Below are positions 6,198-50,228 of a stretch of DNA of 64,000 bases, piece after piece. How positions within the stretch are numbered: position 1 is the stretch's first letter; each line of letters starts with the position of its first letter. Location of the stretch: NCBI RefSeq assembly GCF_022045235.1, contig NW_027266265.1, forward strand, positions 34,100,001-34,164,000, read 5' to 3'. Origin of the DNA: Haliotis cracherodii (lineage: Eukaryota). The position numbers and the translations under genes were made by a program. Below the pieces are notes generated by a model that searched no databases, was not told the DNA's origin, and worked only from the letters and a program-made list of their open reading frames with translations.

Positions 6198-7529
6198 CTA
6201 CTGACAAGTCATCTTGTTCATGTATCCAGGCATACAGCGGAGGGATGCACAGCATCTCATGGCACTGATGCCGTTAATCTTGCATTCGCCGTTACGGAGG
6301 CGACACTGTAAAATATAGAAGAATACATTTACACATCCACGTAAAATGTATCATATGCGTACACCAACAATAATATTGCCCTGAGTATCACAAATCATAT
6401 TTCGTGTGATAGGACAGGCATTAGCTGATAGTCAAATAATCATGTTTGAGAATATGAATTGGAAAGCCCATGAAATGATGCTTCTGAAAGAACTATGGTA
6501 ACTGCATTGTACATGTATGATATCAAGCATGTGCTGGTAATGCTCATTTCTTTTGACGTATGTTATGTAGGTGGAAACTACACATATAATAATTTGCATC
6601 CAATCACATGTAAAGAGAGTAATACATGTAGCATATTCCACCAATATTCTGTCCAGACCACTTGTTATCATTCAAAATCCTTGTTTAAAGGGAACATTTG
6701 TACAGTTACATTTACATGGATATAGTTCCGTGCTACATTTCCGAATTTCATGTCTTATCTCATGGCAGAAGTCAATGTCTGGCACGTTTACTTACCCCCA
6801 TACCGCCGCCAATACCGCCACCAATACCGCCGCCAATGTTCCTCTTGCATATTTGAATGTTACCCAGACCAGACTGACACGTCAAGCCATTGCAGCAGGT
6901 GTTACCATTCATCCAATTGCATGTTTGCCCCTCGTTCTGACACTGCATAAACAAAATGAAGTAAGTTATGCATTTGTAGTGTGTAATCCAACAATATGTC
7001 ACATTTGTTGCTACTATTTATAATTCAGCAACACTGTTAAACTATGGACATATAAACAGTGGTAGGATTAACATACTAATAATATTTTTCCTTTTACATT
7101 TCAGAAATAGTATCATTGCTACATTGTGATGCATGCCAATAATCAAATGGGCAAATGACTAAAGTAATGGCATTAATATACAGGGTGACACGATTGTAAA
7201 TAAACATTTGAATATGATTTATAACAGAACAAGGGATAGCTGGATCACGATATTAGACTATCTTATTTATGGACCATGGAGCATAAGACGTGATGTGGTA
7301 TATGACTTTCGGTTCCTTTTGTCTTTTAAAACATGTAGGAAATTTAAAAGAATCAACTGATTGCACAAGCAGATTTTGATCACATATATCCCCACGGAGA
7401 GATAGTATACATATATCATAAATGAAGATTAAATGATGTGACAGCACTTACTCCAAACCCTGCTGCAAAGAGATCTTGACCCAGTACTGATACCACAAAC
7501 AGCAAAGCAAGACTCACTTTGAACATCAT
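6198..7529 (-). CDS. Gene A: secreted double cystine-knot (ICK-like) peptide, 110 aa; coding exons 7529-7452, 6942-6796, 6305-6198
   Basis: Manual splice: MMFKVSLALLFVVSVLGQDLFAAGFG | CQNEGQTCNWMNGNTCCNGLTCQSGLGNIQICKRNIGGGIGGGIGGGMG | CRLRNGECKINGISAMRCCASLRCMPGYMNKMTCQ*. Canonical gtaag donors and yag acceptors, all phase 0; hydrophobic signal peptide; two C-C-CC-C-C motifs; same structure in four other intact paralogs. Confidence 0.9.
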
Positions 7530-10756: not shown

Positions 10757-10764
10757 TATATATA
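10757..10764 (+). promoter_or_regulatory. TATA box of gene B; non-coding exon ends 10814, 5'UTR intron 10815-11118
   Basis: TATATATA, then ...ctgaacag|gtaaca; acceptor cttttcag 15 nt before the ATG; conserved in B' (TATAAA 25880-25885, exon end 25937). Confidence 0.6.
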
Positions 10765-11133
10765 TGTCAGCTAAGTCAAATAGGCATATCATTGCTGTTT
10801 GTCCGGCTGAACAGGTAACATTATATTTATTGTGAACTCGTTTACACAACAGTTTACAGTACTCCACAAAAATGCAAATCCTGTTTCACGGGAGAAGTAA
10901 TTTCCTATATATTTCCCAAGACTTGAGGTAATATGTTGTTTTTCACAAATGTTATAACATAATTAATCTACATGTCTTCAATGTACTTAATCTAGTATGA
11001 TTTCAACTTAGAATGTCTATGAAGGTTTATATATAGATTATGTGCTTGAAAAATAAACCCAATATAATTTGAATGTGTGACATTGCATCACAGATGACTT
11101 CAATGAATTTCTTTTCAGTTTCACTCAATCACA

Positions 11134-12737
11134 ATGATGCTGAAAGTTTGCGTTGGTCTAATTCTCGTAGCATCCGCTCTGATTCAAGATTCGCATGGAT
11201 TTGTAAGTCTCAAATAATTTCACACTGACTGTTTAATCCAGGAACAGATTAACCATTTATTCTTATTAGAATTCAATGTCTGAAACATCACTATCATACG
11301 AAATGTCGAGTAGGCTGGGTTGAAAGCCGCTGTGGAGAATATTGTAGTTATAGTGTATATTACAGCTTGTCTGCTAGTTGTGTGAGGAAAGTACGATTGC
11401 ATATCCAAGAAATATACCATTTCATTGAGAACCTACGTGCACGGGTATGGTGTTGATAAACAAAGAGTCATAATTTTCGGGGCGTATTTGGAATTCGAAC
11501 CCACGATCATAGGCTTTTGGCATGGCTAAGGGAATCAATTCTGGACAGCGATTTGCGGCTCCTTAACACAGGTTATGATTTGGGGCCATAATACAAGAGG
11601 TATTTTATTTTACAGTGCCAGACAGAGGGACAAACCTGCAATGTGATGAATGGTAAAACCTGCTGTAATGGCCTGATGTGTGAGTCTGGCATTGGAAACA
11701 CAAGAATATGCAAGAGAAGCGCCGGCAGTGGTGCTGGGGTAAGGGTATAACAAGAATCTAAAATTTAACCCAACCCGTAAGAAGCAAGTATTGTCTTTTA
11801 GGTGTTGAGAGAAAACCGAAATCCGTATAATGTCCCCAGTCTTACCTGAATTTTCATTGTACCAGTATAGTACATTCCTCCAGACTGTAACTTGAATTAT
11901 ATCTCTTCAGTAAAGGAAATGGAAATGACCAGTTGGCTGGGACATATAATGGTTGGAAATATGTGCAAAGGAACACATTCATTGGGATTTAAAGGAAAAC
12001 ACAACAATCCACGAAATGCGTTAACTTTGATTACAAAACAATTTTATTACAGACAAAGTAGATATGAGATAAGATCACATGTTAAGCAGATTTAAGGAGA
12101 AAGCCTTTAACACTACAAAGCAACTCAAACCATCTCTTCTTCAAATTGTAACCAGGCACAGTTCTTAATGTTTTGGTCATCATTGCATACACAATTAAAG
12201 GATGTAAATGTTCAGCATGTCTGAATTTTATATATGATATATAATGAGAAATGCTATGAAATAATGACTTGGTCCGCTGCACTATGTAATATTGAGGATA
12301 TAAAATGCAAATGGTATCGATATATACTGCTTTAAAATGAACCAGATTTGGTTACATTACTGTTTATATAGGTAGGTACACGATGTAAACAGAAATCGGA
12401 AAAAATAAATAAAATACAAACAACAATGTAAGTAATATTCTTTAAGAAATAAATAATGTGTGAATAATATGAAGAATTAAAACGTTTTCGTTACTTTCGT
12501 TAAATTTTCATTCACAAATCATTGTCTATATTTGATCTTATGTGTATGCATTGTTTTTTGTCAGCATAATGCCAATCATGCCAAATTGATATGATTAGTT
12601 TATAACACATTCATGTTTCTATTTGACAGTGTCGCCTCCGAAATGAAGAATGCAAAATAAATGGTATCGAAGCCATGAAATGCTGTGGTTCACTCCGCTG
12701 TATGCCTGGATACATGAACAAGATGATGTGTCAGTAG
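11134..12737 (+). CDS. Gene B: secreted double cystine-knot peptide, 99 aa; exons 11134-11202, 11616-11738, 12630-12737
   Basis: MMLKVCVGLILVASALIQDSHGF | CQTEGQTCNVMNGKTCCNGLMCESGIGNTRICKRSAGSGAG | CRLRNEECKINGIEAMKCCGSLRCMPGYMNKMMCQ*; canonical phase-0 splice sites. Confidence 0.9.
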
Positions 12738-17386: not shown

Positions 17387-17788
17387 ATGTTGAACGTGTG
17401 CGTTGCTGTAATCCTTATTGCTTCAGCTCTTGTTCAAGATGCGCATGGTTTTGTAAGTCAAACATCAATATATATTTACTGTAAAAAAATAATGAATTGT
17501 GTTTTCTTGTTGTTCATATACCCATGTGTGTATCCTTGGTTAATCTGTCAACACAGTGATTTCCATTTAGCGTTCTTCAAAGTGTGGTTCCAAAATATCC
17601 CCGATCATCAGTATGGAGTATGATTTTCCATATCATCGTCTGTGTGTATATTGCACATTATGTAATTTCACAGTGCCAGACAGAAGGGCAATGAACATAA
17701 ACGGTGTAACATGCTGTAATGGTCTCATGTGGGAGCCGGATACAGGAAACACAAGAATATGCAAGAGAAAGGTCAAGGTGGTATTTGG
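17387..17788 (+). pseudogene. Gene C: disabled B-like knottin paralog (exons 17387-17452, 17674-17788; no third exon found)
   Basis: Signal exon MLNVCVAVILIASALVQDAHGF|gtaag is intact. Exon 2 reads CQTEGQ then TGA after a small deletion; the shifted frame continues NGVTCCNGLMWEPDTGNTRICKR, with Cys5 changed to Trp. Confidence 0.8.
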
Positions 17789-18180
17789 GTAAGCGAAAAA
17801 CAATAATACTAGTACTGCCAACAATAAACACCCATAGAATCACGAGGGTACTGCTTTTCAAGGGCACTGGAAATGTGAAATTTTGATGCTACCGTAGTAT
17901 TGTAAATATTGACATAAACGTTATCGGATATATATACATGCGACTGATAAATGTCCTTTTTTTATTTCTTTAGCTACAAGTTCAGGATATGATGAGGAAG
18001 ATAACTATGGCTAAAAGCAAAAAGACAGTGATGATTTATCATACTTCACAAGAAAAATCTAACTGTGAGCAAGGTCGTAATCCAAAATACTTTCTTTTCA
18101 GTTTGGAGTGAGTGAATTAAAAGTCACCTTGGCAATATGTTAGCCATAGTGTCACTAGCACATGTATTCAGTAATAATAT

Positions 18181-19638
18181 ACTGAACAACAAAAGTTCCT
18201 GTGACATTGAATAAGATTTATTGCAAAGTTATGTTTTTACCAAATCTGAAACAATTTCGGTTTGTAACAGATAGAAGACTCCTGTAAGTGTTCAAATGGT
18301 TTAATTTGCCAAACTGAAATCAGAAAATGCGAGATTTCATAAAAAACACCCCATGAACATGCCAAAATGTCATTTACAAATCAATAGCGTCTGTGTCCAC
18401 CTCTGGGTGCGATGCAAGCAACACATCTTCGTCTCATGGAATGGACCAGGCGTCTCACAAAGTCCTGCGGGATATCTGTCCATATCTGCCGGAGCATGTT
18501 TCGAAGTTCCTGGAGTGTCTGTGGAACACGTGGTTGACGTCGAAGGCACCGATTCATCTCATCCCACATGTGCACGATTGGTGAGAGATCAGGGGAGCGA
18601 CGGGATGACATTCACGTTATTTGTTGAAGATGAATCCTGAACAAGTCGAGCAATATGAGGCCGGGCGTTGTTATGTTGAAAGGTAATGCCTGTGCCATTA
18701 CGACGCAAAAACAGTAGAACAACAGACCCGATGATCTCGTCGCGGTAGCGCTGTCCATTGAGATTTCCCTCTTCCACTATCAAACGGGTCCTCTGTCTTG
18801 CTGTAATCCCACCCCATACCATGACGCTGCCGCCCCCGAACCGATCTTCTTCCATGACACAATGATTGACGTAACGTTCACCTCGACGTCGGGACACTCG
18901 AATCCGTCCATCGCTGTGGCTGAGGTGAAAACGAGACTCGTCAGTGAATAGAACTTGTCCCCACTGCATAGCCGTCCATGGGCTTGACGGTGGTTTCCTG
19001 TCAAAATGGGACGTCGGGCGGGTCTTCTGGTGACAACCCCTGCACATCAGGGGCGACTACGTACGGTTTGTGAAGAGACTCGTCGAAGGCCAGGGATGCT
19101 TCTTGCAGTCTCTGTTGCTGGCTGGAATCGATTTCGTAGGTGTGTTGTTCGAATCCAGTTCGATTATTGGTTACGCGTGGCCTGCCACTCCGAGGATGGT
19201 CTCTGACTGCATTCGTCTGTTGCAAGCGTTGCCATAAACACCAAATGGTGTTTCTGTGGACTTTAAATTGTCTTGCAGCATCACGTTGACTCGATCCTGC
19301 TTCAAGCATACGAATGGCTCGCAGACGCTGATTTTCGGATAGGCGTGGCATTTCGTAATGTTGAATAATTGCGTAATTTTGTTGTTTTTCTGAGTGATTG
19401 TTATCAGCACGATGCTAAACAATGCATATGGAATCCCGTTAACGCACATGTTTTCACACCCATTCTTGGGTAGTTAAATGCATGGGGCTTGTATAAAAGT
19501 CAACTTTTGCATGGAAAGCATGCTTTTCCGTAGTAGTTGCGTTTTTGTGACTTGATTCCATACATGTACTACAATATTGAAAACCAAACTTTATTTGTTT
19601 GAAAAATACACTAAAATATTGGTGTCACGGGAACTTTT
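18181..19638 (-). mobile_element. Tc1-family DNA transposon with frameshifted transposase (18381-19351)
   Basis: MPRLSENQRLRAI..HTH..RSGRPR; VLFTDESRF; GGGSVMVWGGI; FQHNNARPH; SPDLSPIVHMWD, split over three frames; TIR core aaaagttcctgtgaca (18191) / tgtcacgggaactttt (19623); empty site in unit 1 at ~4240. Confidence 0.95.
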
Positions 19639-21436
19639 ATTTAAAAAACTGTCAGCCATGCAATCACATGTTCATATTCAAATATGAGAATAGGACTTCA
19701 TGACAGCCTTATCACCACACTTCCTGTTTAAAGTCATAAAATGCTAAAATGTTAAAAAGGACAACGACTATGTATCATAAATATGAACACATCTGATAAC
19801 TTTCAAAACAATTTCAAAAATTCAGATCATTTCATAAATTATGTAGATTTCCTTACTATTCCTCGTTATTTAATAATTTCTCCTCTTAAGTACTAAAATC
19901 AAAGGTAACTCAATGATCATATAATTATATACATTGCCGATTTGGTTTGAAAGTTGAACGTCAGTTTGTAACATAGATGGGGAAACAGCAATGTAAAGCT
20001 CCTACAATTTATGACTGGATGTTTTATTTTCCTTATTGTAGTGTTGATTTCGTTTAGGTCCGACTGTGGTCGGTAAAATTCCTCGAATAAGTAATCACAT
20101 TAAACACAATGGGTCGAATACTAGAATATGTTACAATGCTAAAGAATATGTATTGCTTGGACTGCTTTCGCGACGTAAATTGCATAAATTGCAGTTGCAA
20201 TACCAAATACCAAATACAATTTTCACTGTCTCAGAACAATAACTTTTGGCTTAAATTTTACAAATAGATTCGACATATATGTTATACCGAGGCTTTATCA
20301 GGGGTATATGATGATGAGGGATATTTATATTGGCAAAATGGTTGCTGACCAAGAGAAAGCAATGGTAAGAGTTCAAATTAGGAAGGTACATTGACGGAAT
20401 ACACAGATGATATTTTTCAAACCCCATCTCAATATGTATATAATTGTCTAATGTCTAAAACTTTCCCAATGGATGACTATAAGACTTTTGTTAAAAACAT
20501 GAATTTATTACATATTTTTTAAATACTTACTGATTTTGACATCTGGATAAAAGTGTAATACATCTGGATAAAAGTGTGTATTATAATTAACAACAGCCTC
20601 GACGAAGACAATCGTTCAGTTTTGCATAATAAAAACATTATATTAACCTACAAGTGTTGACGTGTGTTCATTTTGCTTTATACCTGGATTTCTTATGATA
20701 TATAGTTGAATGCGTAAAATCGCCTCTGTTCTTGGCGGAGATTTCTTATGAATATGGAAGGGTGTTGCGCTTTTATTTTCATAATTATGATGCTATGGAT
20801 TTTACAAATTATTCTTCTCATAAATGTCAAGGCTGACTAGGGTATCTTGATGCCGTTTTAATGTGTGTTGGTATCAAAACGAAACTGACACCTTACATGT
20901 TTCGTCTCTTGGAATGTGAATTGAAAATAACAACTGACGACTGTCAATAACTATAACCCAAACATTGCGTGGGAGAATTTGAAGTGGATTTTTTCTCCTT
21001 TCCTTCAAACAAATTTTCTGTCCAATACAACACAAGTGCTAAAACAGAATTATTTTAGAAGATATTTAGTTCATTGTGTCCAAATTACCTTTTTCTTGGG
21101 GCAATAAGCTTTTGATGTATATATGTTGAACTGTTTTAAAATAGAGTTCGTTGAACAAAAGTCAATATAACAATGCAATAATGAGTAACATATCTCATCT
21201 GCAGTGATTAAGAGAATGAATTTGCTATAAGGCCAGTTACATATAATGCTGTGTCAGCTTGATATGGGAGGAAAGTCCGATCATGTCTCCTAAGCATGAC
21301 ATATATTCAGTCAGCAACAACTGCAATAAACATTGGGCAACAAAAACAATGTAAAATGTTTGAAATCACTTTTATTGTCAAGCAATTCGTGCACACATAT
21401 CTAGCTACCGAGGGATGTCAAAGTATCAGTTTACAT

Positions 21437-22816
21437 CTACTGACAAGTCATCCTGTTCATGTATCCAGGCATACAGCGGAGGGATGCACAACATCTCATG
21501 GCACCTATGCCGTTAATCTTGCATTCGTCGTTACGGAGGCGACACTGTAAAATATGGACGAATGCATTTACACATCCAAATGAAATTATCATCTGCGTAC
21601 ATCAATAGCAATATTGCACCGAGTATTACAAAACATATTTTGTGTGATACGACAGGCATAAGCATATAGTCAAAATAATCATGTTTAAGAATATGAATTG
21701 GAAAGCCCATGAAACGATGCTTCTGAAAGAACTCTATTGTAACTGCATTGTACATGTATGCTGTCGAGCATGTAATGGCAATGCTAATTTCTTTGGACAT
21801 ATGTTATGTAGGTGGAAATGGCACATGAATTATACTAATTTGCAACCAATCACATGTAAAGAGAGTAATACATGTAAAATATTCCACCAATATTCTTTCA
21901 GTCCGGACCACTTGTCATCATTCAAAATCCTTGTTTAAAGGGAACATTTGTAAAGTTACATTTACACGGATATAGTACAGTGCTACATTTCCTAATTTAA
22001 TATTTTATCCCATGGCAGTAGTCGATGTCTGGCACGTTAACTTACCCCCATACCGCCGCCAATACCGCCACCAATACCGCCGCCAATGTTCCTCTTGCAT
22101 ATATTAATGTTACCCAAACCCGACTGACACGTCAAGCCATTGCAGCAGGTGTTACCATTCATCCAATTGCATGTTTGTCCCTCGTTCTGACACTGCATGA
22201 ACAAAATGAAGCAGGTTTTGCATTTGTATCGTGTAACCCAACAATATGTTACATTTGTTGCTATTATTTAGAATTCAGCAACACTGTTTATCTATGGACA
22301 TATAAAACAGTGGTAGGATAAACATGCCAATAATATTTCTCCTTTTACATTTAAAGAAAAATACAGTAAAACATGGGGCATATTCATGCAGAATTAGAAT
22401 CATTGCCGTATTGTGATGCATGCCAATAATCACATTGGCAAATGACTAAAGTAATGGCATTAATATACAGGGGGACACGATTGTAAATAAACATTTGAAA
22501 ATGATTTATAACAGAACAAGGGATGGCTGGATCACGATATTAGACTATATAGTTTATGGACCATGGAGCATAAGACTTGATGTGGTATATGATTTTCGGT
22601 TCCTTTTGTCTTTTAAAACATGAAGGAAATTTAAAAGAATCAACTGATTGCAAATGCAGCTTTTGATCACATATTTCCCCACAGAGAGATAGTATACATG
22701 TATCATAAATCAAGATTAAGTGATATGACAGCACTTACTCCAAACCCTGCCGCAAAGAGATCTTGACCCAGTAGTGATACCACAAACAGCAAAGCAAGAC
22801 ACACTTTGAACATCAT
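21437..22816 (-). CDS. Gene A': double cystine-knot peptide, 110 aa; exons 22816-22739, 22192-22046, 21544-21437
   Basis: MMFKVCLALLFVVSLLGQDLFAAGFG | CQNEGQTCNWMNGNTCCNGLTCQSGLGNINICKRNIGGGIGGGIGGGMG | CRLRNDECKINGIGAMRCCASLRCMPGYMNRMTCQ*; intact splice sites. Confidence 0.9.
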
Positions 22817-23859
22817 TGTAATGATAGGGTACACCTGGAAGCAAACAGAAGGTGATGCATTTGAAATCCTAATACTTCTGAACAATGCTCAGTACTTCAT
22901 ATGTACAACTTTAGTATTGTGTGAACACAGATGTACTTGTAGTAATGACACCATTATGTTAAACAATACTGAAACACAATGTGAAAATTCATAAAATATT
23001 ATCCTCATGATGAATAGTAATGATATATATTGGAACTAAGTATGGTTGTTTCTGTCGTCTGAGACGCCGCAATTGTGCAGAGTTGCTTCTCTTAGCCATG
23101 CAAAATATGTTTATCGTGACTTCAAATCACAGATTATGATTTGGTTTCTTAGCACCATGCCCGTGCCCTTGGTTTTCATCAAAGTTGTTAATGTCTAAAG
23201 CCTGCATCCCTGCGAGCTTTCTTTCACGATTAAGCTGACACGCTGTAATAAAACTAGTTTACTGTTCCTAGAGCCGTGAAGTTCAACTCACTCGTTATGC
23301 ATACCTGTACATACCTGTTCAACTGTAAGATCGAATGGAGAATATACAGTGCCTAGCATTACATGTATTTATACCCGTTGATCGATAATATTTCCTGAAC
23401 TGCATATTCAATAATACGCAGAAAATGTGTTGCATTTAATATCACAAATCTGTTGGAACAGTTAATGATCTGACGGCGATCTGACATGTGACGTTACTTT
23501 GATCAGCTGTAGATGCTGATATGTTATCAAGATTCACATGGCATGTGTTGTTGATGCTTCATTGTGCTTGAAGAGTGGTAAAGGAATAACAAAAAATGAG
23601 GGTGTGTTTTGCTCTTTGGTCGAATCTGATTGAATATTCACCACGTACATGTTTGTACAGTATTATCCTCATCTTCCGATTATTTTGCAAGTGGTCTGTG
23701 TTATATTTTTTTCAATATACGTGTGTTCAAAATTTAAAATCGACAAAAGCCTTTCCATGTTCATGAGACTTATCTGCCAAAATATGAGTCGACTTTACGA
23801 TTCCGACTATATCGTGAGCATGTGTTAATGAAACGCTGTCAAATAGTGATGATAGCAGG

Positions 23860-25115
23860 TGTTGGCGAAAAGGTAAGCGTATCCTGTCCCACAAGTGGCA
23901 CCAGTCACAGAGTTATGCCTCTTGTTGACTGAATCAATAGTCCCTACAATCACGGCAGTATTCTCATCCTGAATATTCTGAAGTTTCATCAGATGCCCAT
24001 ATTTGTCGTCGATGGACTCTCCCTCTCATTCTGTCCAATGATTTTGGCTTCGCATACGACACATTGTATGGCATAGATCAATTTTGGGGAAGTACAAATC
24101 ATATTTACACTGAAACAGAACGTTTTTCCGTCTTTGAATGTAAAAGAAATACATTGAACAACATGAGGGTAAGTAATTAGGTCTGTAACACTATTGTACT
24201 GTTTTACATTATTGTTTTCCTCGTAAGAAAGAAGCCTAGTAAGAATCCTTTCAAGACGACTGCTCTGTTTTTTACCTTTAATAAGTTTATTTATTTGTTT
24301 CAGTTCTTTACACTTGTTTAACGAAAACAGTGTCTCCCAAACATTTCAAAATATTTCCGGATTGGGGGATTAAAAAGGTTGTAACAAAAGGGAGAATACT
24401 CCCGTTTTGAATATCTTACTCTTTAAGAAGATCACAACGGTTTTGTGATTTAGCCTTGTTTGTGGCATCTTCTACTATTGTCCAGTGTAGTTTCTTTCTG
24501 AAAGGAATTACCCCAGTTTATTGAGTCTATATTGCGCAGATTCTACGTGTTGATGAGTAAGGGACACTAAATGAGAAGGTGAAAGGAATTGCAGTATTGT
24601 TTGGAATTGGTTGGTCTGTAATGTGCATCTCTGTCAATCTTATTGTTTGATATTGTAACTATTACATCAAGAAAAGAAAGACTTTCATCGTTCATCTCTG
24701 AAGTAAAAGTAAAACACTGTAAATCTTCTCCATTCTGATTGCACCGAAAAACACAATCATCTAAAACTATTTTCCATTTGTTATGAAATCACTGTCCAAA
24801 TGCAAATTCATCAGTTTCTTTTTAGATTACATCCATGGTTGATTTGTGATGGGTATCGTTCCAACTTTTAAAAACAATAATTGTGGTCACTATGGTTGAA
24901 GGTCAGATATATTTCAAAATCACGCTTTTAACGTTTGTGTAATGTCTACAAGAAAAGCTTGCTGGGAAATGTAAGTTCTCCTTGCATGAATTTAATCCCT
25001 CACATTAAAAGCTCTCAAAAGATGCATCCTCTTTTGTTTGAAGCATGCTCAAAATGTATTCTATTGGAGCTTTAAAATTAAACGGTGTCGGGTTTACTTC
25101 TTGGGAACGTACCAT
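23860..25115 (-). mobile_element. Duplicate of the decayed Penelope-like element
   Basis: Colinear with 8720-9985, with additional deletions. Confidence 0.75.
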
Positions 25116-25279
25116 ACCACTAGTACTGTAGCTATCGGAGAGTTTTCACTACCAAATGCAAGATGCTTTGCATTGATATTGTTCCATCCACGTTTTAAAC
25201 TCACTCACTCTTCTATATTCCTATAGTGGACTTAAGAATACTTTTCGATATTGACGTTCGTGTTTGTTTTAACTTTGCT

Positions 25280-25452
25280 GGGGCGGTTGGCTTGCCTCGT
25301 GGTAAAAAACGTTCGATCGTCACGCCAAAAGACTCGGGTTCGATTCCCGACATGTCTACAATGTGTGAAACGTATTTCGAGTGTCCCCCTGCCGTGATAT
25401 TGCTGGAACATTGCTAAAAGTGGCGTAAAACCATACTCATTCACTCACTCAC
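25280..25452 (+). mobile_element. tRNA-derived SINE (family 1), duplicated copy
   Basis: Same insertion site as 10164-10321. Confidence 0.85.
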
Positions 25453-26272
25453 TTTAACTGTGCTAGCTAAAACTTCCAAATTTACTATAGATCATGCTGC
25501 TTTGGGTACTTAAATGTCCCTGTCTACACTAAATATCAACAGAAGAAAACAAATTGTAGTTTTGCAATCCAGTATAAACCCGCTTGTAAAATCTAAAAAT
25601 ATTTCCAGCAGGTACATTCTGTGATGTCTTTTCAAATCGTTATGTATTCGCTCTGTTCCATTTAATTGTCCTTGCTCGTTAAGAGCATGACAGATGTAAA
25701 TGATCACATTTAAAGATAACTATTTGTAATGAAGATTATTTATCTGTGTAGGTAGGAATCAGATCCTATCGGAGGTTGTGACTGACAGACTGACATCGGA
25801 TCCAAGATAACAATTGCAACACCTGCTCTGCTAATTTATCATCCTTATCTTGCTTTGCGTAAGTTTGGAGTCTCAGTGGTATAAATATGTCAGCTAAGTC
25901 AAAAAGGCATCTCATTCAAATTTGCCCGGCTGAACAGGTAACATTATATTTATTAATGTGAAACACAACTCGTTAACACAACAGTTTTAAGTGCTCCACC
26001 AAAATGGATAGGTTAAGTCATTTGCTATATATTTCCCAAGACTTGAGGTAATATGTTGTTTTTCACAAATGTTATGACAGTCTTAATCTACATTAACAGT
26101 ATGATTTAAACTTAGTCTGCTTATGAAGGTTTATGTATAGATTATGTGTTTGAAAATTAAACCCAATATAATTTGTGTGGGTGTGATGTTGTTTATTTTA
26201 TGAACGGTTGGATAGTTTACATTCCATCACAAATGACTTCAATGAATTTCTTTCCAGTTTTACTCAATCACA

Positions 26273-28175
26273 ATGATGCTGAAAGTGTGCGTTGCTCTAA
26301 TCTTCGTAGCATCCGCTCTGATTCAAGATTCGCATGGATTTGTAAGTCTCAAATAATATCAAACTGACTGTTAAGTCCAGCGACAGTTTAAACATTTATT
26401 CTTATTAAATTTCAATGTCTGAAACATCACTATCATACGTAATGTCGATAAGGATGGGTTTAAAGCCGCTTGGAGAATATTGTAGTTACAGTGTATATTA
26501 CAGCTTGTCTGCTTGATGTGTGAGGAGGGTACGACTGCATATCCAAGAAATATACCTTTTTTGAGAACCTACGTGCACTGGGAAGGTGTTAATAAAGAAG
26601 GAGTCATAACTGTCGGGGCGTATCTGGAATTGAACCCACTATCATGGTTTCTGGCATGTATAAAGAACTCAATTCTGCACAGCGATTTGCGGCTTGTTAC
26701 ATAGCAGGACCATGCCTGACCCTTGCTTTTCATTAGCAAGTAATGAAATGTTTTGTTCGATAGAGCTTTCCATAATCGTGTTTACAATTTATTTTTTGCT
26801 TTCGGAATACATTGCGTTTATTTTTTCTCTGATTTTAAGATGGGCATCACTTAAATATTATCATATGACGTCTATGTTAAAGGCTAATACATATTGATAC
26901 GACATACATATGTATGGTTTGGGGCCATAATATAAGAGGTATTCTATTTTACAGTGCCAGACAGAAGGACAAACCTGCAATGTGATGAATGGTAAAACAT
27001 GCTGTAATGGCCTGATGTGTGAGTCTGGCATAGGAAACACAAGAATATGCAAGAGAAGTGCCGGCAGTGGTGCTGGGGTAAGTGAATAACAAGAATCTAA
27101 AGATTACAATTTAACCCAACCCGTAAGAAGCAAGTATTGTCTTTTAGGTGCTGGGAGAAACCCGAAATCCGTATATTATCCCCAGTCTTACCTGAATGTT
27201 CATTGTACCAGTATGGTACATTCTGCCAGACTGTAACTTGAATTATATCATATCTCAGTCAGTAAAGATATGGAAGGACATGGAAATGACCTGTTGGTTT
27301 GGACATATAATGGTAGAAGCTCTGTATAAAGTAAAATGTTAAGTTTTGATTTAAAGGATGCCTAAACCTTGATTACAAAACAAATTTATTACAGACAAAG
27401 TAGATATTTAATAAGATCACATTTTAAGCAAATATAAAGAGAAAGCCTTAAACACTACAAAGCAACTCAAGCCATCTCTTCTTCAAATTGTAACCAGGCA
27501 CAGTTCTTAATGTTTTGGTCATCATTGCATACACAATTAAAGGATGTAAGTGTTCAGCATGTCTGAATTTTATACATAATATATAATGAGAAATAACATG
27601 AAATAATGACTTGGTCCGCTGCATTATGTAATATTGAGGATATAAAACTCAAATAGTATCAATAGACATGGTATATACTGCTTTAAAATGAAACAGATAT
27701 CGCTTTGTTACATGTACTGTTTATATCGTTACATGTATGTACACGATGTATACAGAAATGGGACAAAAATACTTTAAAAAACACAAAAAAAACACTGTGG
27801 AAAGCGTTTTGAATACTTTAGTTTAATTTTCATTCAAAAGTGATTGTCCATTTTTGAACTGTACATGCATTCCTATTTGTCAACATTATGCCAATTGCAG
27901 CCTCCCCCCCCCCCCCCCCCCCCCCCCCCACACACCCTATCCTCCGCACCACTTAGCAAGCAAAGAACTGAATTTGATATGAATAGTTTGTAACACATTC
28001 ATCATGTTTCTATTTGACAGCGTCGTCTTCATGTGGATGTGTAAATGTATTCGTCTGTATTTTACAGTGTCGCCTCCGTAACGACGAATGCAAAATTAAT
28101 GGCATCGATGCCATGAAATGCTGTGGCTCACTCCGCTGTATGCCTGGATACATGAACAAGATGATGTGTCAGTAG
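26273..28175 (+). CDS. Gene B': double cystine-knot peptide, 99 aa; exons 26273-26341, 26955-27077, 28068-28175
   Basis: MMLKVCVALIFVASALIQDSHGF | CQTEGQTCNVMNGKTCCNGLMCESGIGNTRICKRSAGSGAG | CRLRNDECKINGIDAMKCCGSLRCMPGYMNKMMCQ*; AATAAA at 28229-28234. Confidence 0.88.
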
Positions 28176-28344
28176 ATTGCATCTGATATACCTTGTACCC
28201 TTGTCCCTGCCGACAGACCGTTGTTGGAAATAAAATGGCTTTATGAAATCATACAAAACGTGTTTTCTGTCTGTCCTTTTGTATCATACGCACGCACTCT
28301 CTCACACAATCGACTCACTCACACACTCGTCTCACTCACTCGAC

Positions 28345-28680
28345 TCGACTCCGTGATCTAGTGGTAGCGCGTTCGCCCGCAGGGTGAAAAATATGGGGTT
28401 CGATCCCCGGCCGCATCATACCAACAGACATTAAAAGATGGTGCTTTTGGTTACCCTGCCTGACGCTTGGCATTTAGGGGTTAAAACAAGGACTGGTCGA
28501 CAGTTTATTGTGTCTGAGTGGGGTATTCATGTTGCATTACGGCATGGTATCTCAGTGGGCTAGCACTATAAAATCGGCATTAGTCCGGCCTAGTGCTATA
28601 TAAGTGCAATAATTTTGGCCACCTCACCTCACCTCACCTCACCCCACCTCACCTCAATCCCACCAAACCTCACTCACTCA
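28345..28680 (+). mobile_element. tRNA-derived SINE (family 2, ~300 bp, CACCT tail)
   Basis: tctagtggtag / ggttcgatccc boxes; shared core tgtctgagtggggtattcatgtt; other copies at 35303-35625, 41516-41733(-), 45633-45820 and 62225-62365. Confidence 0.8.
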
Positions 28681-29090
28681 CTCCAAAATATCCTTTATAA
28701 TACCTGAAGTAAAACAACACAAACTGTCTGTCTGTTTGTTTTGTTAGTCCGTTGTTTAAGGCCTCACTAATAAATATTACAGGTATAGCGCCTGCATATT
28801 ATCGAGAATGTGATTGACATGAGCTGTGACCCACGTCGTCGGATTAACATGACAAGTAATCACAGCTAGAGATCTTCTGATCCTTTTTGTCGCATCTTAC
28901 GGTCGCGACATATCCCGACATATTTGAACATAGAGATGTGTCACGACAGCATCTAGCAGAAACACATATTCAACATACATAGAAGGAATATTTGTTATAA
29001 AATGAATTTTAATTTCGAGTTTACAAGTTTCCGTTTGGAACGTTAGGGCGGCCCTGATAAGGACCTAAAAATAAAAGAAATCCGCAGCAT

Positions 29091-29513
29091 TTATAGATGA
29101 CAGTCACAACAGAGATCAAATGCCCGGAAGACAGCCATGCCCGAACACAAAATATTGTGCTTGTCAGCGAAACACTTCATTTCAATATCCCCACAGTACA
29201 TACACGTGTAGTGCGCCGAATGAGGCACTGAGTCCATCTTTGTTGACGGCGCCGCTTTGAAACAGGTCCTACACAGCACTGTTTCCACTAGTCGCTGTAG
29301 ATTGGGATGAAGAGGCGGAGGATGAGGCTGCCGTTGAGGTAGTTGTGGAGACAGTTGTTCAGGTAGTTGCGGGGTTGGTTGTGGTGGTTGAAGGGGGTTT
29401 GACGGTGTCGGTGTTGGCGTCGAGACTGACAAAGGTTGAATCCCGTGAAGAGCGTCCATCAAACTCGAGTCCATTAGGGATGAGGGTGAAGATGAAACGT
29501 CCATGAAGTCCAT
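29091..29513 (-). CDS. Intronless ~140-aa ORF, Ser/Pro/Gln-rich N-terminus plus Cys/His-rich putative zinc-binding C-terminus; origin unknown
   Basis: ORF track 29091-29585; likely start MDFM at 29513 with TATATAAA ~35 nt upstream; CRTC..H..CMYC..C..H..C..CCDC; GC-richer than flanks and not a tandem repeat. Confidence 0.45.
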   Translation of the reverse strand: MDFMDVSSSPSSLMDSSLMDALHGIQPLSVSTPTPTPSNPLQPPQPTPQLPEQLSPQLPQRQPHPPPLHPNLQRLVETVLCRTCFKAAPSTKMDSVPHSAHYTCMYCGDIEMKCFADKHNILCSGMAVFRAFDLCCDCHL

Positions 29514-31822
29514 GATTCTCAGAGTGGAGAACCAATAACGAATAAGGTTTATATAACGGGTATGCATCTGTTGTTTATGACGCACTCACATGCTGCTGAA
29601 GTGTTTCATTTCCCTTGATAGGCGATACCCTTTGTCATGGAGCATAGCACAGTCGGTGTTCTTTGTGTTTCGGATGTATGTATATATCACACGTTATACA
29701 ACAATAAGTTACACATCACATCTACCTGACACATCCACAGTTGCTGCGACAGTGTAACACACTAAGATCAGTGAAGTAATACGTTGACTTTAAATTTATT
29801 ACACAATGATGATGATGATGATGATGATAAAGTTATAGATAGGATGTATAATTATGTATACTTATGTATACTAACGATTGAGTGTGTGAGTTGGATTCAA
29901 CTCTGTTTTGAACAATATTCAAGTTTTATCATGGTTTTTCAGATTGATGTGGAGGAAAGCCCAATTATGAAGATGAAGATGAAGATGAATATTTAAATGT
30001 AGATGTTGACGAAGGTGATAACGAGGACAAAGAAGTCCACCCTAGCGGAAATCCGTTTCACTCGTTTTGAAAATACCACCTGTAAATCATGCATGTCATA
30101 TACATGTACGTATCATTTTTGTACGGCCATTCATGATCAAGCTAAGAACATAACACATCTAGATCTGGATATATGTATAACGAAACACGTGCCATATGTC
30201 ATATACATATGGATACTAATGGATACTTATTGTTAGACCCGTGGAGATTCCGGGGTAGAATCGGTCTTCAGCAACCCATACTTGCCGTAATAATGTCAGC
30301 ATTGAAATAATCCACACTGTAATATTCCTTCCAATGTCGTCCGCACTAAGAACCGGGATGTATTGAAGCTAGTAGAATCCCATTACATGAACACACTAAG
30401 GGCGTTCAATTTAGTTTGTATTGAACAGACTAGACATTCAAGTTGTAAACATAATACATCAGATTACAATGTCACGTGAAAAGTACGATTACTTTAATTT
30501 CCGTAATTTCTAATACGATATAATAATATTTTATTGCATCATCTTAATATCCCATGTATAAAAATATATATAATGTAAGTTTTAACAATGCTGACAATAT
30601 TAAGAACATGTATTCATTTGCCGAGAGTTTCCCAGAGCTTAAGTTGCTACAGAGCTTAGGATTAATTAATGCCTATTCATCAACCGCCCTTGGGCAACTG
30701 TTCACAGCTTGACCGTTCCAGTGTCAAGTACATGTTTACCTAGGAGTGTCACAAACACATCATTTTAACGGCTTTGACGCGATTGTGTGCCTTCACTGAC
30801 CTTTGTCTTTGTACTTCAACTGATCACATTAAAAAAAATAGAAAGACGACTTTGCAGAACATGGTCTATTATAATTTGGCTATGTGACATAAAAGGTTCA
30901 ATCCTGTGCAAAATTTACATTAATAATGTTTCACCCAGTTATTAACTGTGTTTAAAGTGATAAAAATAAACGTTCAATTACAGTTAAACGCCCTCGAGGC
31001 GAAAACATCGCCTTCTTCTGGGAACATACTAATATATGTACGTGTGTAAAAATGGACGCTATGTCACAGAGAAAAGTGCCAACATTCACGAATGATGTAA
31101 CAGTGATAGCCCATTGAAAACCTCAGAGGCGGGTCTGAGATGTAACCTAAATGTCGGAGTTGGAGATTAGGTCGCGTAGTGTTACATGTACGTCTAACTG
31201 TGATTGATATCCAACATGGGTACAATAAATGAAACCATTGCATTTGGCTGTTGTCTCACGTTCTGGTATTGCTACAATATTGCTGAAACGGCGTAGAATA
31301 TATCTCACTTTTACCTCAGTCCAACTGAATCCTGACATGGTTAAAGAAGAGAACTCTATATGGCAAACTGCAGTTCCTACAAACAGCTGCTTCGCATCTA
31401 CCCGCCTCAACCACAGACCGATTGCATCATTAGTGGACATGTAGTTTTCAATCTGATTAAATCCTTTAACCTTTGAGAGTGACTGTTTCAGCGTTTATGC
31501 GAACGTTGTGAAACATATGCAATAATTTGGTTGTCTAGTTAATTTACAGGCCCTTTACGCCAAATGAAACGTGTTTCGGCGGATAATCAATACTGGATAA
31601 TCAATTCTCTTGCATTGACGTCTTATATTTCGATGCATATTATTCTCACAGAAGGGCTATATATGCATGTACATGTGGATAAGCCTTTGAGATAAGTTCA
31701 CAGGCAAGCATAAAACCGTAAGTCAATATTATTATAAAACCAAATGACCATTCAATCAAAACAAACATACTTGCTTTAGTCATTTCCTTTATTAGCTAAA
31801 CACATCTGGTACAAATGTGTCG

Positions 31823-33953
31823 TTACTGACACACCAGCTGGTAATATTGGTTGTAAACGCACATCATGTTATTACAGCATCTCATCTCCTGGGCTCCTGT
31901 CTTCCAGCACTCTTGACCATATGATCGACACTGAATTATACAAGGATATGTCATGAGGAAACCAAATTATGCTATGTTATTACTGATATTTTTTTATTTT
32001 ATTTTTACAACATTTATAATGCAATAAATGAAATAACTTTTTTGCAAGAATGAAACCCTCGAATTTACGTATATGCATTATTTCATAATTCAAGAACTGC
32101 GAGTAGATTTCATATAAATATCCACAAATGTGTAACATCAGGTAACGCATTTTAGAAATAAAGAGTGATTAAGTTGAATATATTTATTTCTCATCTATGT
32201 AATTTCAAACTTCAAATATCCTTTCTCCTCACATACGTCGCGAACTACAACATTGAGTCTTTTTCATACCAGTTTAAAGGGCGGTTACAAATGTCAACCT
32301 TATGTCATAATCCTTAGCACATCTGGTTAAAGGAAACAAGGATGTTATTATTTTAAAATGCGTAATCTAATATCATTCAGTTAGCTTACACACTACTGTT
32401 ACCTCAATACTTCTATATAGACTTATCATATTTGTAGCAATGAAATTATTATCTGCAAAAAGGAGCTATTCTTGACAACCAGCCCGATGTCCTACCATAT
32501 TGTTTCCTCCATTCATGTTTCTCTGACATGTGCGAATGTTTCCGACTGAAGCCTGACAGGAGAATCCTGTGCAGCAACTTCTAGTTCCTGCCAAGTTGCA
32601 AGTCTGACCTTGATTCAGACACTAAAATGGTAAAGACATGTACAGTATGAAAATACTTATCGTCGATCAAATGATATTGCATTAACATCAATATGAAGTA
32701 TTATTGAATTATCGAGATAACCGTTATCAACAGTATAAGACAAGTCTGTAGATTTTGCGAAGTAACAGTTTAGTTGTATGTTTTAGTGTACCACCAAGTG
32801 GTACACTTTCATTTCAATGCAAATGTAAACGGTATCTTTTAAACTTGGCAAATCTATTTAAGGAAACGCCGATGCTACATATTGCTTCAACTAAACATTC
32901 TTTCAATAGGCTTACACGCCATTGTTAATCCTATGGTTAGATTTTGACTTTTTATCATTATTAATGGCAAGATCGTTATGTTCAAGTGGGTTGGACAACC
33001 AGTGAGAGGTCTTACCAGACTTCCTCCATTGATGTTTCTCTGACATGTTCGCATGTTCCCCATAGAATTCTGACAGGAGAAACCTGTACAACAACTTCTA
33101 CCACCAGCCAAGTTGCAAGTTTGACCTTGATTCAGACACTGAAATGATATGTTTTATTAACGTTCTTCGTTCTAAACATATGAGTGAGTTTAAAGTCACA
33201 TCGGCACTTTGTCAGCCATATTGGTACAAGAACAATGTATATATCAATAATAAATAAATTTAGACAACATAAAATCCTGTCCCCTTTTGGAGTCTTGGTT
33301 CAAACAGGTCTAGGCCACCAATACTGGTTATAAGAGGAAACCAAATGAATCAAATGGTAGGACTCGGTTACTTGGTTGAGGTTGAGTGACTTTTATCTGT
33401 CAGTGACTGGTCCAGATTCCATTATCGTATTGTAGCTGGAATTCTGCTGTATGCCGCGTTTATTGGCTAACAACAGCAACATTTCAAGGTTGGAAAAAGG
33501 AATTTTGCTTACCGTATTCGACGTAATAAGCGCCCCGCTCAAATAAGCGCCGATGGCGATATTTGCTAATATACTGGCTAGTGAACAATCCAGATTAGCA
33601 CCCCTTCCGATTGATCAATGTACACAAGACTTATATATTCTTGTATATTACGTGTGTTATATACATCCTTAATTATAGGAAATAAAATTCTGGAAAAATA
33701 TATCTGTTGTATATAAACATTTCAGGCTGTCAGCATAAACCACGAAATTTACGATCTTTCAACTCTGTTGTTTTTCACCAAATAAAATTCTGATCAGAGC
33801 CCCATATTTCTCAGTTTGAGAGCGCCCAGGGCGCTTATTATGTCGAATACGGTAAAAACAAATTGAATTACTTACGAATCCCATGCCGTTGCCATTTTGA
33901 GCAAAGGTTGACCCCACGAGGGCTGCGAGGGTAACACAGACAAATGCATACAT
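31823..33953 (-). CDS. Gene D: secreted triple cystine-knot peptide, 144 aa; exons 33953-33876, 33138-33016, 32621-32496, 31930-31823
   Basis: MYAFVCVTLAALVGSTFAQNGNGMGF | CLNQGQTCNLAGGRSCCTGFSCQNSMGNMRTCQRNINGGSL | CLNQGQTCNLAGTRSCCTGFSCQASVGNIRTCQRNMNGGNNM | CRSYGQECWKTGAQEMRCCNNMMCVYNQYYQLVCQ*; all phase 0; AATAAA at 31793-31788. Confidence 0.88.
33512..33852. mobile_element. MITE in intron 1 of gene D
   Basis: TIRs ccgtattcgacgtaataagcgccc / gggcgcttattatgtcgaatacgg, flanked by TA. Confidence 0.85.
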
Positions 33954-35302
33954 AGCTGTAGAATAATACTGAAAAGTAGATTAAGCATGTTAGATAGTAT
34001 GTATTATGTATGAGAAGGGTGTGCTTTAGTGAATGATTTGGATTAAGGACACCGTGAAGAGCGTAGACATATATTTCTTTGGTAATGCCAACGAGTATGG
34101 GTATGGTGTTGACAAACCAAGGTTATAATCGGGATTAGACCACGTAATCTTTACAGAGCAACTCAGTGAATTGTAGCGCTTTATACCACTGGACCTTCAC
34201 TACATTTTAACAATCTGCTTACGACACTACATGTATGAGCAATGCTAAAGCGTCCATAAATGTGACAAAACGTATTGATTCAAAACAGTGAGGAAAACTG
34301 ACAAATAGCTTCTAAGTGCATATTTAATCAATGGAAACGATAACCAAAGTGTTTATTCAATCATATATCTTATTGTTGCTTGAATTTTTCGTTTCTACGT
34401 TTTTGGGCATACAAGATTGAGTTGTTCCTTATGGAACATTGATGTCACGAGACTGGACATTTTTATCTAAATGTGATGACATTGATCATAAGCACATGAT
34501 GACTGCGTAAGATGAGTATGATGAATAATTTCAGCCGCTTTGATGTGTTTCAGTAATTCGTGGTTTTTTTTAGCTTTCTGCAGATAGAAAGCCCACAACA
34601 CGAACTGAAAACAATCCGTGCAGATGTTTTTGACGTTTAGCACTTGGTGGGGTCAACGTGCACGGGTATAGTGCTGACAAACCTGGGAATATAATCCGGA
34701 CGAACGGGGATTCGAACCCGCGATCATAAGTCTCTGGGGCACCCAAGGAACGGAACTCCGCACAGAGAATTGCTCGTATTAGACGACTGGGGCACACGTG
34801 CCCCGTGGTGATGATGTTTATCGCAATGATGATGTTAAACGCGATTGTACGATTTCGACGTTCATGAGAAGGTGTTTATGAATCACTATTAAAATGAATA
34901 ATGTTTTTTATCGCTAACAAGATCGACATGTCTTGAAAAGTGTACTTTGCAATTTTTGTCACTACTATAAGTAATTTTCCTCATAGCTGGAAAGGCTTGT
35001 GTATCAGTACACATGCAGCTATCTTTGTTAATTAATCAACGCGAAAGTTGGGATTCTAGTTCAAGTAGCGAGGGCCAAAGCGGGAATACGTGGATCAAGA
35101 CTGAGGTTGCTAGGACGAGCATATATGCATACATATGGCAGATAAAGCGGAAACGTATAAATAAAGCTACAACTTATAATCATTTTTGTGATTTGAAATA
35201 TCAACGAAATTATAACGACAACTTTTACCAATAGCGAAAATGTTTCACAAGTTATTTGCTTTCATTTAGCTTGTTAATATCACATGAACTCTTCATTCTC
35301 TG

Positions 35303-35625
35303 GACCGCCTCCGTGGTCTAGTTGTAGAGCGTCCGCCCGGAGAGCCGCGTCATACCAAAAGTCGTTAAAAAATGGTACTTGTTGTTACCCTGTCTGGCGC
35401 TCAGCATTAAGGGGCTAAAACAAGGACTGGTCGGCTCAGAGTCAGTATACTGTGTCTGAGTGGGGTATTCATGTTAAACTGCGGCATGGTATCTCAGTGA
35501 GCTAGCACTGTAAATCGGCATCAGTCCGGACTAGTACAAGCAGCCACACAAACACACACACGTCGCTACATAAGTGCAATAATCTTGGACGCGACGTTAA
35601 ACCCCATTTCACCTCACCTCACCTC
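35303..35625 (+). mobile_element. SINE family 2
   Basis: Homologous to 28345-28680. Confidence 0.8.
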
Positions 35626-37729
35626 ATTCTCTGAACAGTTGCCAACGCTCTCTCGAAGGAATGCCTATAGTGCTGTCAAAGATCATTTCGGGCACTGGTA
35701 CCCACTACCATCGACCCCGAATCCCCCGCAATTACCTCAAATCAAGAATATACTTACTGACTGTTAAATGCAACAGCGCCTGTATGTCATGTACATGTGT
35801 GAATACTTGTCTGAAGGTAACGCCTATATTTATACTGAAACCGTTTTGTACTGATGAAACGTTAACGCTTATCTGTTACACGTGTTGCCTTTCCAACTGA
35901 CATTATCTTCATCAACCATCAATTAGACGCAATTACCTTGTCACATTTGTCAATCAGTGAGTTTTACCGTTTCATAATGTATTGTCCTTCTAAAAGAGGT
36001 TCTGGAGTCACATGCTTGTAATGTACTGCAACCATATCCGTGTACTGCTCAATGTAATGTATGCTTTATGTAACTTTATGTAGTTTCAGGTTTATTCTTT
36101 TTAATTGTCATGATGAAATTCGTAACATATGTTCACATGCGTCAATCGGCAGATGTTTTTGGTACGGACTGAGTGAATTGGGTTTTACGCCGCTTTGAAC
36201 AGTATTCAAGTTATATCACGGCGTGTCGGCTTACTGTGGGAGGAAAGCCTGAAGTGATGCAGGTCTCAGACAATTGCCACTGTAGTGAAACCAATGAGTT
36301 ATAGTCGGAAGCAAAAGATGGAGTTCGTAATAATATTGTTATTGTGTGTACGGTTGTTGTGTTAAGCGTTTGTAACAAATACAGTACACATCGCACTCGG
36401 CTGACACACATATAACTCCGTTGTTGACTTAAAGTTATTTGACCTGCTTTGAACACGTTTCAACAATAATGGCGAACAGCACACGTTTGAAACGTTATAT
36501 TTGGGATACGACTTTTTCAGTAAAGTACAGATTCTCGTAGTTTTTTGGGTTGAATCCCGTAATCCCTCTGCCATCGAGGCTTTCACAAAAATGAATGTCC
36601 GTGATAAAATTTATATGACCATGGATTCGAAATTCGAATCATTCAATATTGATTGAGGGATAGATACAATGTATATCACCCCGCAAAGAAACAAATAAGA
36701 TATTTTTTAATTTCAAATCCACGCTGTATTTGAATCGGAAGGATGTTCGAAGATGCGAGCTAGCTACTCTTTTTAGTGTTATTTACGTGTTTAAGTCCTC
36801 CATGTTTTTCCAGCCCCTTATGCTATCAGCAACGATACAGCAACTGTAGCACTTCTCCCAATAACTATGAACTTTGTTTCACATGTCTTTAACAACGGCC
36901 AACTTAACACTCAAAATAGGTCTTTTTATCTTTGGTTTTCCTATTCTACCAAAATACAATTTATTACTAAGACAAATCTTACTTGTGCACGTATCTGTTG
37001 GAATTGTTTATATTTTCGCCAGTTTACACATTTTAAATAGCTGATTGACAGGATAATGACCTTTATAATGTAATGACATTTACACACGATTGATGTTACC
37101 GTTAACACTTGACGTCATCATTGTGCATTATTACGATTCGTGGATGGGTCTCTCAGTGCATTTTGACGCTTGATACAAGTGATGCGAGTGTTAACTGAAT
37201 ACTGTGCAGTTTTAAGTTTATATTTTGATACATATTGTTAATTTAGCCATAGAATTGAACATGACTTTTTCTTCTGGCAGCTTCGCGTGAGTGACCCTAT
37301 AAACATACATTTTTTCAATCCATTATTCATTTCACAAATCACTACCGACGGTGGTACAAGAGCGTATATTTACAACAATTACAAAACATTCAATGACAAG
37401 ATTGCAGTATCGGTTACGTTTTACATTTAGCGAAAACTTGGTGTCATAACTTTGTGTTAGTGATTCATAAACACGTGATATCGTCGGCATTGTTCCAAGT
37501 ATGGAGATGTTTTTGTCGTTTTGGTCTCATAGGAAAATATACTATTGTAAATACATTGTAAATGTGAAAATATTTATAGTTGTTACTTGTATTTATACAG
37601 ATTAAGCCAAAATAATTAGATGGGATATATTTTGATCTAGAATTTAGAAAGGTGTTACATTTGAAAAGTCCTTTCTTAACTTTACCATTACAACAGCCAG
37701 TCTCTGCAAGAAGATAGTGATTAAATGTC

Positions 37730-38040: not shown

Positions 38041-38325
38041 NNNNNNNNNNNNNNNNNNNNNNNNNNNNNNNNNNNNNNNNNNNNNNNNNNNNNNNNNNNN
38101 NNNNNNNNNNNNNNNNNNNNNNNNNNNNNNNNNNNNNNNNNNNNNNNNNNNNNNNNNNNNNNNNNNNNNNNNNNNNNNNNNNNNNNNNNNNNNNNNNNNN
38201 NNNNNNNNNNNNNNNNNNNNNNNNNNNNNNNNNNNNNNNNNNNNNNNNNNNNNNNNNNNNNNNNNNNNNNNNNNNNNNNNNNNNNNNNNNNNNNNNNNNN
38301 NNNNNNNNNNNNNNNNNNNNNNNNN
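38041..38325. other. Assembly gap (285 N)
   Basis: Run of n. Confidence 1.
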
Positions 38326-47221: not shown

Positions 47222-47739
47222 TGTGATGTCTATCTGTATAATTCCTTGTCTTGAACTGTTTTTATAAGGTATGCCACCTGGTTAGATCACTTGCCATGAC
47301 ATGAACATGACATTTTGAGAGATTAGATTTGGTGTAACAAAGGCGTCAGATTAAAAAAACATTAGCAGATAAAGGTATTTATAAATACATTGTGTGTGGT
47401 AAGAGGCGATTAAGATGGATCAGGGGACCAGGCTTCATCGACGGCATGGGACGTTGCCCATTCTATTGCCCACTGCTTTGTTTAGTCTACACTCCGTTAT
47501 CTACAAACCGCGTAATATAATTGAAATATTGCTGACTGTGGCGTAAAACAACATTATGACTCATCATGTTTGATCCGTTTCTACAATGCAGATGCTTCCA
47601 TCATCTAGACGCAGTGATAATGCGACGCCATCATTTAATGGAATTTAGTAAAACGGTATCAACATTGGCTAGTGAAAGAATTTAGCTTCATAAAAGTAAT
47701 GCACCCAACAACAATAAAGTGTGTAATTATAAGTGAGAA

Positions 47740-50222: not shown

Positions 50223-50228
50223 TGCGTA

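Follow-up and report, generated by a model that had tools for sequence, protein, structure and literature searches.

Current papers leave open how peptides with several knots originate, and the question is taken up below for gene D of the abalone Haliotis cracherodii, which lies among its relatives in the 64,000-nucleotide stretch of DNA analysed here (the window). A sequence-only reading of this locus had proposed that each knot occupies one symmetric phase-0 exon, so that the number of knots in the protein, its valency, could change by exon duplication or, within a single gene, by in-frame exon skipping. Our analysis indicates that the exon architecture, the exon duplication and a dominant three-knot mRNA very probably hold together for gene D; the more striking claim, that valency can be switched by splicing, is without support.

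A six-frame scan of the window identified 11 segments with the cysteine pattern C-C-CC-C-C. The strict form of this pattern has no match in any of 20 second-order Markov shuffles of the window, and a looser form matches zero to two times per copy in 20 second-order Markov copies. The segments belong to five intact genes, designated A1, B1, A2, B2 and D, that are predicted to encode secreted C-C-CC-C-C peptides (Table 1); a hydrophobic N-terminal stretch can be recognised by eye in all six signal exons of the cluster. The A and B genes each encode one first-type knot followed by one terminal knot, and D encodes two first-type knots and then a terminal knot. Gene C is a sixth, broken member of the cluster: its first-type exon (from 17674) carries premature stops and a frame break, and no terminal exon for it was found in the window. 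A degenerate transposase-like stretch follows gene C on the minus strand (~18400-19335; DDE_3, E 0.006, below cut-off). The A-B pair is itself a duplicated block (4244-12576 versus 19638-27895, 81-87% identical), and a second segmental duplication is nested with it (1-3731 versus 12752-16874, 98% identical). Since the second copy of the 1-3731 block comes after a B-type terminal exon, the sequence immediately preceding the window probably contains a further knot gene.

Table 1 Knot genes of the window and the intron footprint in gene D (all positions are window positions)
Feature	Position	Strand	Details
A1, two knots	6198..7529	-	signal 7529-7452, knot 6942-6796, terminal knot 6305-6198
B1, two knots	11134..12737	+	signal 11134-11202, knot 11616-11738, terminal knot 12630-12737
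Gene C, probable pseudogene	17387..17789	+	signal exon 17387-17452 intact-looking
A2, two knots	21437..22816	-	signal 22816-22739, knot 22192-22046, terminal knot 21544-21437
B2, two knots	26273..28175	+	signal 26273-26341, knot 26955-27077, terminal knot 28068-28175
D signal-peptide exon	33876..33968	-	ATG at 33953, 26 codons, phase-0 donor gtaagt
D knot exon 1, first type	33016..33138	-	41 codons, phase 0-0
D footprint, first ~196 nt of intron after knot 1	32820..33015	-	matches start of intron after knot 2
D knot exon 2, duplicated first type	32496..32621	-	42 codons, phase 0-0, donor gtagga
D footprint partner, first ~208 nt of intron after knot 2	32288..32495	-	intron alignment
D terminal knot exon, coding part	31823..31930	-	35 codons + stop; AATAAA at 31793

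The four exon translations of D tile exactly the RefSeq protein XP_071087194.1 (P0002; Haliotis cracherodii, 144 aa, three knots), and the H. rufescens ortholog, also of 144 aa, differs from it at three residues. The span first proposed for D left out the signal exon. Upstream, a TATA-like word with a gtaagt donor ~70 nt further on (~35755-35836, minus strand) was noticed by eye and is a candidate 5' UTR exon of D.

The exon architecture is highly regular. A TGT or TGC codon for Cys1 directly after the acceptor AG opens 11/11 knot exons of the window, exactly as the sequence-only reading had described. Its further statement, that each knot exon ends in phase 0 after the Gly linker, is correct for the first-type exons, where the best donors are in phase 0 after a Gly-rich linker in six cases out of six, and does not extend to the terminal exons, which close with a stop codon; only the first-type exons are symmetric 0-0 cassettes. 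The signal-exon donors are likewise in phase 0 (6/6), as are all coding introns of the cluster. The ground plan of the family comprises a signal exon, a first-type knot exon and a terminal knot exon, joined in phase 0 and with each knot starting at Cys1. In D the marks of symmetric exon duplication are all present: equal phase on both sides, a domain whose borders are those of the exon, and a duplicated flanking intron.

This last mark is readable in the DNA. Local alignment of the two first-type units of D pairs 33149-32820 with 32632-32288 and extends from ~11 nt before the acceptor, through the exon, over ~200 nt of the intron that follows. Beyond those ~11 nt, no homology was found ahead of the acceptors. 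The intron parts alone are identical at 135 of 189 aligned letters (71%) and give an alignment score of 92, compared with a maximum of 52 in 100 shuffles, 46 for the best non-overlapping tile among 1010 tiles of the window, and 21-31 when the D introns are aligned with the matching introns of the A and B genes. The match marks a genomic duplication whose breakpoints lay in introns. The two exon copies differ at 14/39 codons, mostly silently (dS 0.53, dN 0.086, Fisher p 0.0005), the pattern of an old duplication held by purifying selection. With 83% identity in protein and 86% in DNA, together with this dS, the copies are alike but not the near-identical pair they had been taken for; the third, terminal unit is diverged from both, as expected from the sequence-only reading. 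In the D lineage, a tandem duplication with breakpoints in introns copied a first-type exon and no less than 200 nt of the intron behind it; it predates the split of H. cracherodii and H. rufescens, as shown at the protein level, and both copies have stayed under purifying selection.

What kind of domain was duplicated? The six cysteines are invariant in 11/11 window domains, with loops of 6/7/4/9 and 6/9/4/9 residues, and by prediction the domains are ICK-like. A model of knot 1 (pLDDT 78) contains a C-terminal hairpin with strands at residues 20-24 and 30-34. Foldseek returned no match at E 0.001; the top structure match of the knot 1 model, a weak one, is tachystatin B (2dcv, 2dcw; TM 0.61, E 0.18), and a comparison of the knot 1 sequence with the PDB likewise ranks tachystatin B first (E 0.0013). 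Alignment with spider knottins is similarly weak, at a level usual for domains of such size (VIA Z 4.3, rmsd 2.3 over 37 residues). The AlphaFold model of full-length D is poor (pLDDT 52, pTM 0.26) and uninformative on domain packing; searched with Foldseek, it has DkTx, remipede Xt3a and Hi1a among its top seven rows (E 0.002-0.17). Leads from the ESM Atlas to short ICK clusters all scored below 0.9. For the same C-C-CC-C-C pattern, synthetic mussel peptides are reported to have folded in vitro with cysteines paired 1-2, 3-4 and 5-6 (PMC4558851).

Neither P0002 nor any of 10 window segments reaches the Pfam gathering cut-offs of Tachystatin_B (PF11478), Toxin_7 (PF05980) or UPF0506 (PF11703). 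The Tachystatin_B score is 22.2 bits, below the 25-bit cut-off, and that for UPF0506 is 15.7 bits against 23.2; H. asinina protein P0001 passes Toxin_7 (29.1 versus 27). By the tests made, the abalone family is not a member of CRP-I or of the Pfam toxin families. Two functional labels can be set aside here. RefSeq names XP_071087194.1 'egg protein CP422-like', and we reject an egg role on this basis, the label being no evidence and the UPF0506 match lying under its cut-off; a venom-toxin role suggested by the Pfam toxin names is rejected because the window proteins all score below cut-off. Abalone is not known to be a venomous animal, and D most likely acts as a multivalent binder at a secreted or mucosal surface rather than as a venom toxin.

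To speak of valency is to assume that the linkers stay uncleaved, and the basic residues around them bear on this. The sequence KR directly follows Cys6 in A1, A2, B1 and B2; D has QR, two H. asinina units have RR, an Arg lies two residues past Cys6 in 13/13 first-type units, and KR is found within the linker of a sea-slug relative, P0016 of Elysia. The KR pairs of the A and B genes and of the Elysia linker make cleavage possible in the family, and for mussel multi-CRP-I cleavage has been proposed (PMC4558851). All of these observations would fit a polyprotein whose linkers are cut, in which case a duplicated exon would yield more single knots, or more varied ones, without raising valency. We regard this as a serious possibility, albeit one that we would bet against. 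The linkers are long stretches rich in Gly, the basic pair sits immediately next to Cys6, and D has no dibasic pair in its two linker-bearing units; another exon-built rosary of cysteine-rich modules, Spod-11-tox, is reported not to be processed into active defensins (PMC2728511). The units of D carry net charges of +3, +3 and +1, and it is these charges and the missing dibasic pair, unlike the situation in A/B and Elysia, that shape our assessment of its product. We lean slightly towards an uncleaved, multivalent chain, and a defence role, like that of tachystatin or mussel CRP-I, is a reasonable if not quite even prospect. D itself is best read as an expressed gene for a secreted protein with three ICK-like domains on short Gly/Asn linkers.

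Relatives in other species allow the history of knot number to be followed. Three knots are found in the H. rufescens protein and both two and three among H. asinina paralogs, where P0001 and P0004 have three and P0003 has two, under consecutive accessions. The variation in H. asinina, together with the intron homology behind both copies in D, supports the central claim that knots are gained by exon duplication. The H. asinina repeat unit, 45 residues long, begins at Cys1 and closes with the Gly linker, the same borders as those of the A exon in the window (the A-type linker is 17 residues long in the window and 13 in H. asinina). P0001 contains one unit twice with a single difference in 45 residues, a near-identity that could be an assembly or model error, and P0004 contains a P0001-type unit followed by a unit 85% like that of P0003. 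Among themselves the H. asinina terminal knots share 91-97% identity; the figure drops to 69-83% against those of A/B and to 31% against that of D.

A further two-knot H. cracherodii paralog, P0006 (XP_071090831.1), lies outside the window and has an ortholog in H. rufescens. It was among 18 matches of a profile search, alongside three of the query proteins, two sea-slug proteins and 12 others that we took to be generic cysteine repeats after inspecting 6 of the 12. The sea-slug matches, P0007 of Plakobranchus and P0016 of Elysia (E 8e-9 and 7e-5), are secreted-looking two-knot proteins with Gly-rich linkers. In a second homolog search, with P0002 as query, 2/22 candidates matched and both were already known.

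In a tree built on 36 columns the four D first-type units form a clade (support 97/99) and the D terminal knot sits on a long branch. An AU test rejects orthology of the second knots (p 0.0001), and the three-knot paralogs of H. asinina, whose knot type differs from that of D, most likely represent a second, independent gain. Knot number would then have changed again among the A-type paralogs of H. asinina, perhaps by the same exon route. The alternative is a single ancient three-knot origin followed by losses (in A1, A2, B1, B2, P0003 and P0006) and within-gene conversion. A single clade of all first-type units from three-knot proteins is not rejected by the AU test (p 0.22), nor is one that unites their terminal knots (p 0.26), and spider Hc1a is a documented case of loss and unequal crossing-over (PMC13172734). 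We nevertheless consider a single origin unlikely: by signal peptide and terminal knot, the three-knot genes of H. asinina belong with the A-type genes that have two knots and not with D, two knots are present in 6/10 abalone genes (D and its ortholog counted apart) and in both sea-slug relatives, and several losses would be required.

Exon duplication alters the genome; whether knot number also varies among transcripts of one gene was addressed with assembled contigs from 4/11 runs (X1, X3, X5 and X7), which carry no tissue label and were guessed to be RNA. X1 and X3 come from one study, X5 from a second and X7, with a depth of 2, from a third. Contigs were compared with window positions 21200-36000; the four junctions of A1 and B1 fall outside this region. 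Within it, 7/7 coding junctions match prediction, in phase 0 and with GT-AG borders, six as joints and one by loose ends. For D, the junction 33876-33138 is present in X1, X3 and X7 (93, 90 and 93 letters on the signal-exon side), 33016-32621 in X1, X3 and X5, and 32496-31930 in X1 and X3 and also in X5, which lacks three letters of the knot 2 linker in frame (window 32503-32505). Both A-type junctions are seen as joints in contigs that could originate from A1 or A2; of the B-type junctions, from B1 or B2, the first is a joint and the second is indicated by loose ends. A second B-type contig in X3 differs over nine letters where the signal exon ends (26332-26955) and may come from another paralog or allele.

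Unbroken contigs cover all three knots of D in X1 (504 nt), X3 (489 nt) and X5 (412 nt), and at the listed D exon places in these three runs the total depth equals that of the one three-knot contig. X7 shows the D signal exon and knot 1 only, the next exon not being visible; ahead of the signal exon its contig has ~64 more letters that are unplaced. The predicted D transcript, with both internal exons included, is thus present in the contigs, and the three-knot form dominates D mRNA in these samples (three runs, two studies).

The sequence-only reading had pointed to the weak donor of knot exon 2 as a route to two- and three-knot isoforms. On a rough matrix built on generic frequencies, gtagga does score lowest of the six knot-exon donors (2.6, the other five 4.2-5.5); it scores above all six signal-exon donors, however (0.5-2.5), three of which are seen used in contigs, and gtagga itself is used. 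Since both first-type exons of D are 0-0 cassettes, skipping would keep the frame, and alternative splicing is reported, in a paper cited in PMC4436361, for lepidopteran X-tox genes, whose exons hold one defensin motif each. That D makes substantial amounts of both isoforms in some tissue or condition nonetheless seems to us quite improbable. The three-knot contigs are unbroken in 3/4 runs from two studies, no skip joint is present among the 15 joints listed of 333, donors scoring lower than gtagga are used, and the cluster entries of each of two species hold a single 144-aa model. Contigs of this kind are described as derived from simplified assembly graphs with short contigs dropped (PMC12424806), so rare splice forms can vanish from them; a frequent skip form would be expected to show as a branch in the graph and so to interrupt the contig. 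We infer that skipping in D, if any, is minor, and no two-knot isoform of the gene appears among these contigs and the joints listed. As to knot exon 2 being an assembly duplication or a dead exon, a notion prompted by the 98%-identical block elsewhere in the window, the chance is negligible and the notion is refuted by the 14/39 differing codons, mostly silent, and by the presence of both exons in spliced contigs and in H. rufescens.

A three-knot protein built by exon duplication and expressed as such can be compared with several known systems. In the spider toxin Hc1a, the second knot is reported to have arisen inside one exon, in a gene with a propeptide and introns of phase 1 and 2; exon shuffling was the starting hypothesis of its authors and was rejected, and they state that none of the bivalent toxins so far described is reported to have used the intron route (PMC13172734). 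Like Hc1a/Hi1a and DkTx, the abalone proteins, predicted to be secreted, have tandem ICK-like domains joined by a linker, with gain and loss of domains; unlike Hc1a, their genes give each knot its own phase-0 exon and have no propeptide exon. Mussel multi-CRP-I is a molluscan parallel, with clustered genes and pseudogenes, C-C-CC-C-C modules in variable number and a function as little settled as that of the abalone proteins, but its modules are described as lying all in one exon, 2-4 residues apart, in genes with a dibasic site in the propeptide, phase 1 and 2 introns and positive selection, and its authors ruled out exon duplication (PMC4558851, PMC10138031). The abalone genes have one exon per knot and linkers of 8-17 residues, and the D copies are under purifying selection; the propeptide with dibasic site, the modules in the last exon and the phase 1/2 introns that define CRP-I are absent from the window genes. 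For both Hc1a and CRP-I the exon route was rejected because the knots are not separated by an intron.

In gene mechanics the abalone family resembles lepidopteran X-tox, with one cysteine-rich module per exon (PMC4558851), and Nasonia nasonin-6, with a module per exon and phase 1 introns (PMC2853521), as in all of these module number is altered by exon duplication. X-tox and nasonin-6 have the defensin CS-alpha-beta fold, whereas the abalone domains resemble multi-ICK proteins by prediction, and the alternative splicing reported for X-tox (cited in PMC4436361) has no counterpart among the D contigs. Schistosome egg protein CP422/UPF0506 (PF11703), from which the RefSeq label derives, shares six-cysteine knottin-like repeats with D, the match being weak. 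Tachystatin B is a cationic ICK from non-venom tissue; it is a single domain where D has three, and the likeness comes from sequence and structure matches. D also fits the SCREP class of secreted cysteine-rich repeat proteins, having the tandem cysteine-rich domain repeats named in the description of that class (PMC6262176).

The mechanism of exon duplication is in itself ordinary. What is new, relative to spider Hc1a and mussel CRP-I as described in the papers cited above, both intron-less at this point, is a multi-knot gene of ICK pattern with an intron between knots. The cluster presents the textbook exon route in a family with the ICK pattern, complete with an intron footprint that can still be read, a duplication that is dated, and paralogs of two and three knots that are closely related. 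We found no paper on this abalone knot family in the literature searched, which takes in few subscription journals. A 2015 paper gives mussels and Conoidea as the only molluscs with the C-C-CC-C-C motif, and a vetigastropod family, with sea-slug look-alikes, can be added to this range.

A broader reading, speculative and in our judgement more doubtful than not, is that abalone, and perhaps gastropods more widely, possess a modular kit of knots, in which phase-0 exons are repeatedly duplicated and swapped among tandem paralogs to vary the number and type of knots in uncleaved multi-ICK proteins. Its instances might be the D duplication, the doubled unit of P0001 and the mixed units of P0004, with the terminal knot fixed behind, though we hold this list just as tentatively. 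If true, the papers searched would contain no earlier multi-ICK family that uses the intron route, and this one would stand outside any venom and provide a natural series of two- and three-knot proteins for avidity tests.

Three other features of the window may be recorded. An N gap of 285 bases lies at 38041-38325, and tandem arrays with units of 34, 53 and 45 nt are found at 47700-50300, 53700-55400 and 60650-61900, respectively. Between B2 and D, on the minus strand (~29100-29520), a GC-richer, Thr/Ser-rich coding-like fragment can be recognised by eye.
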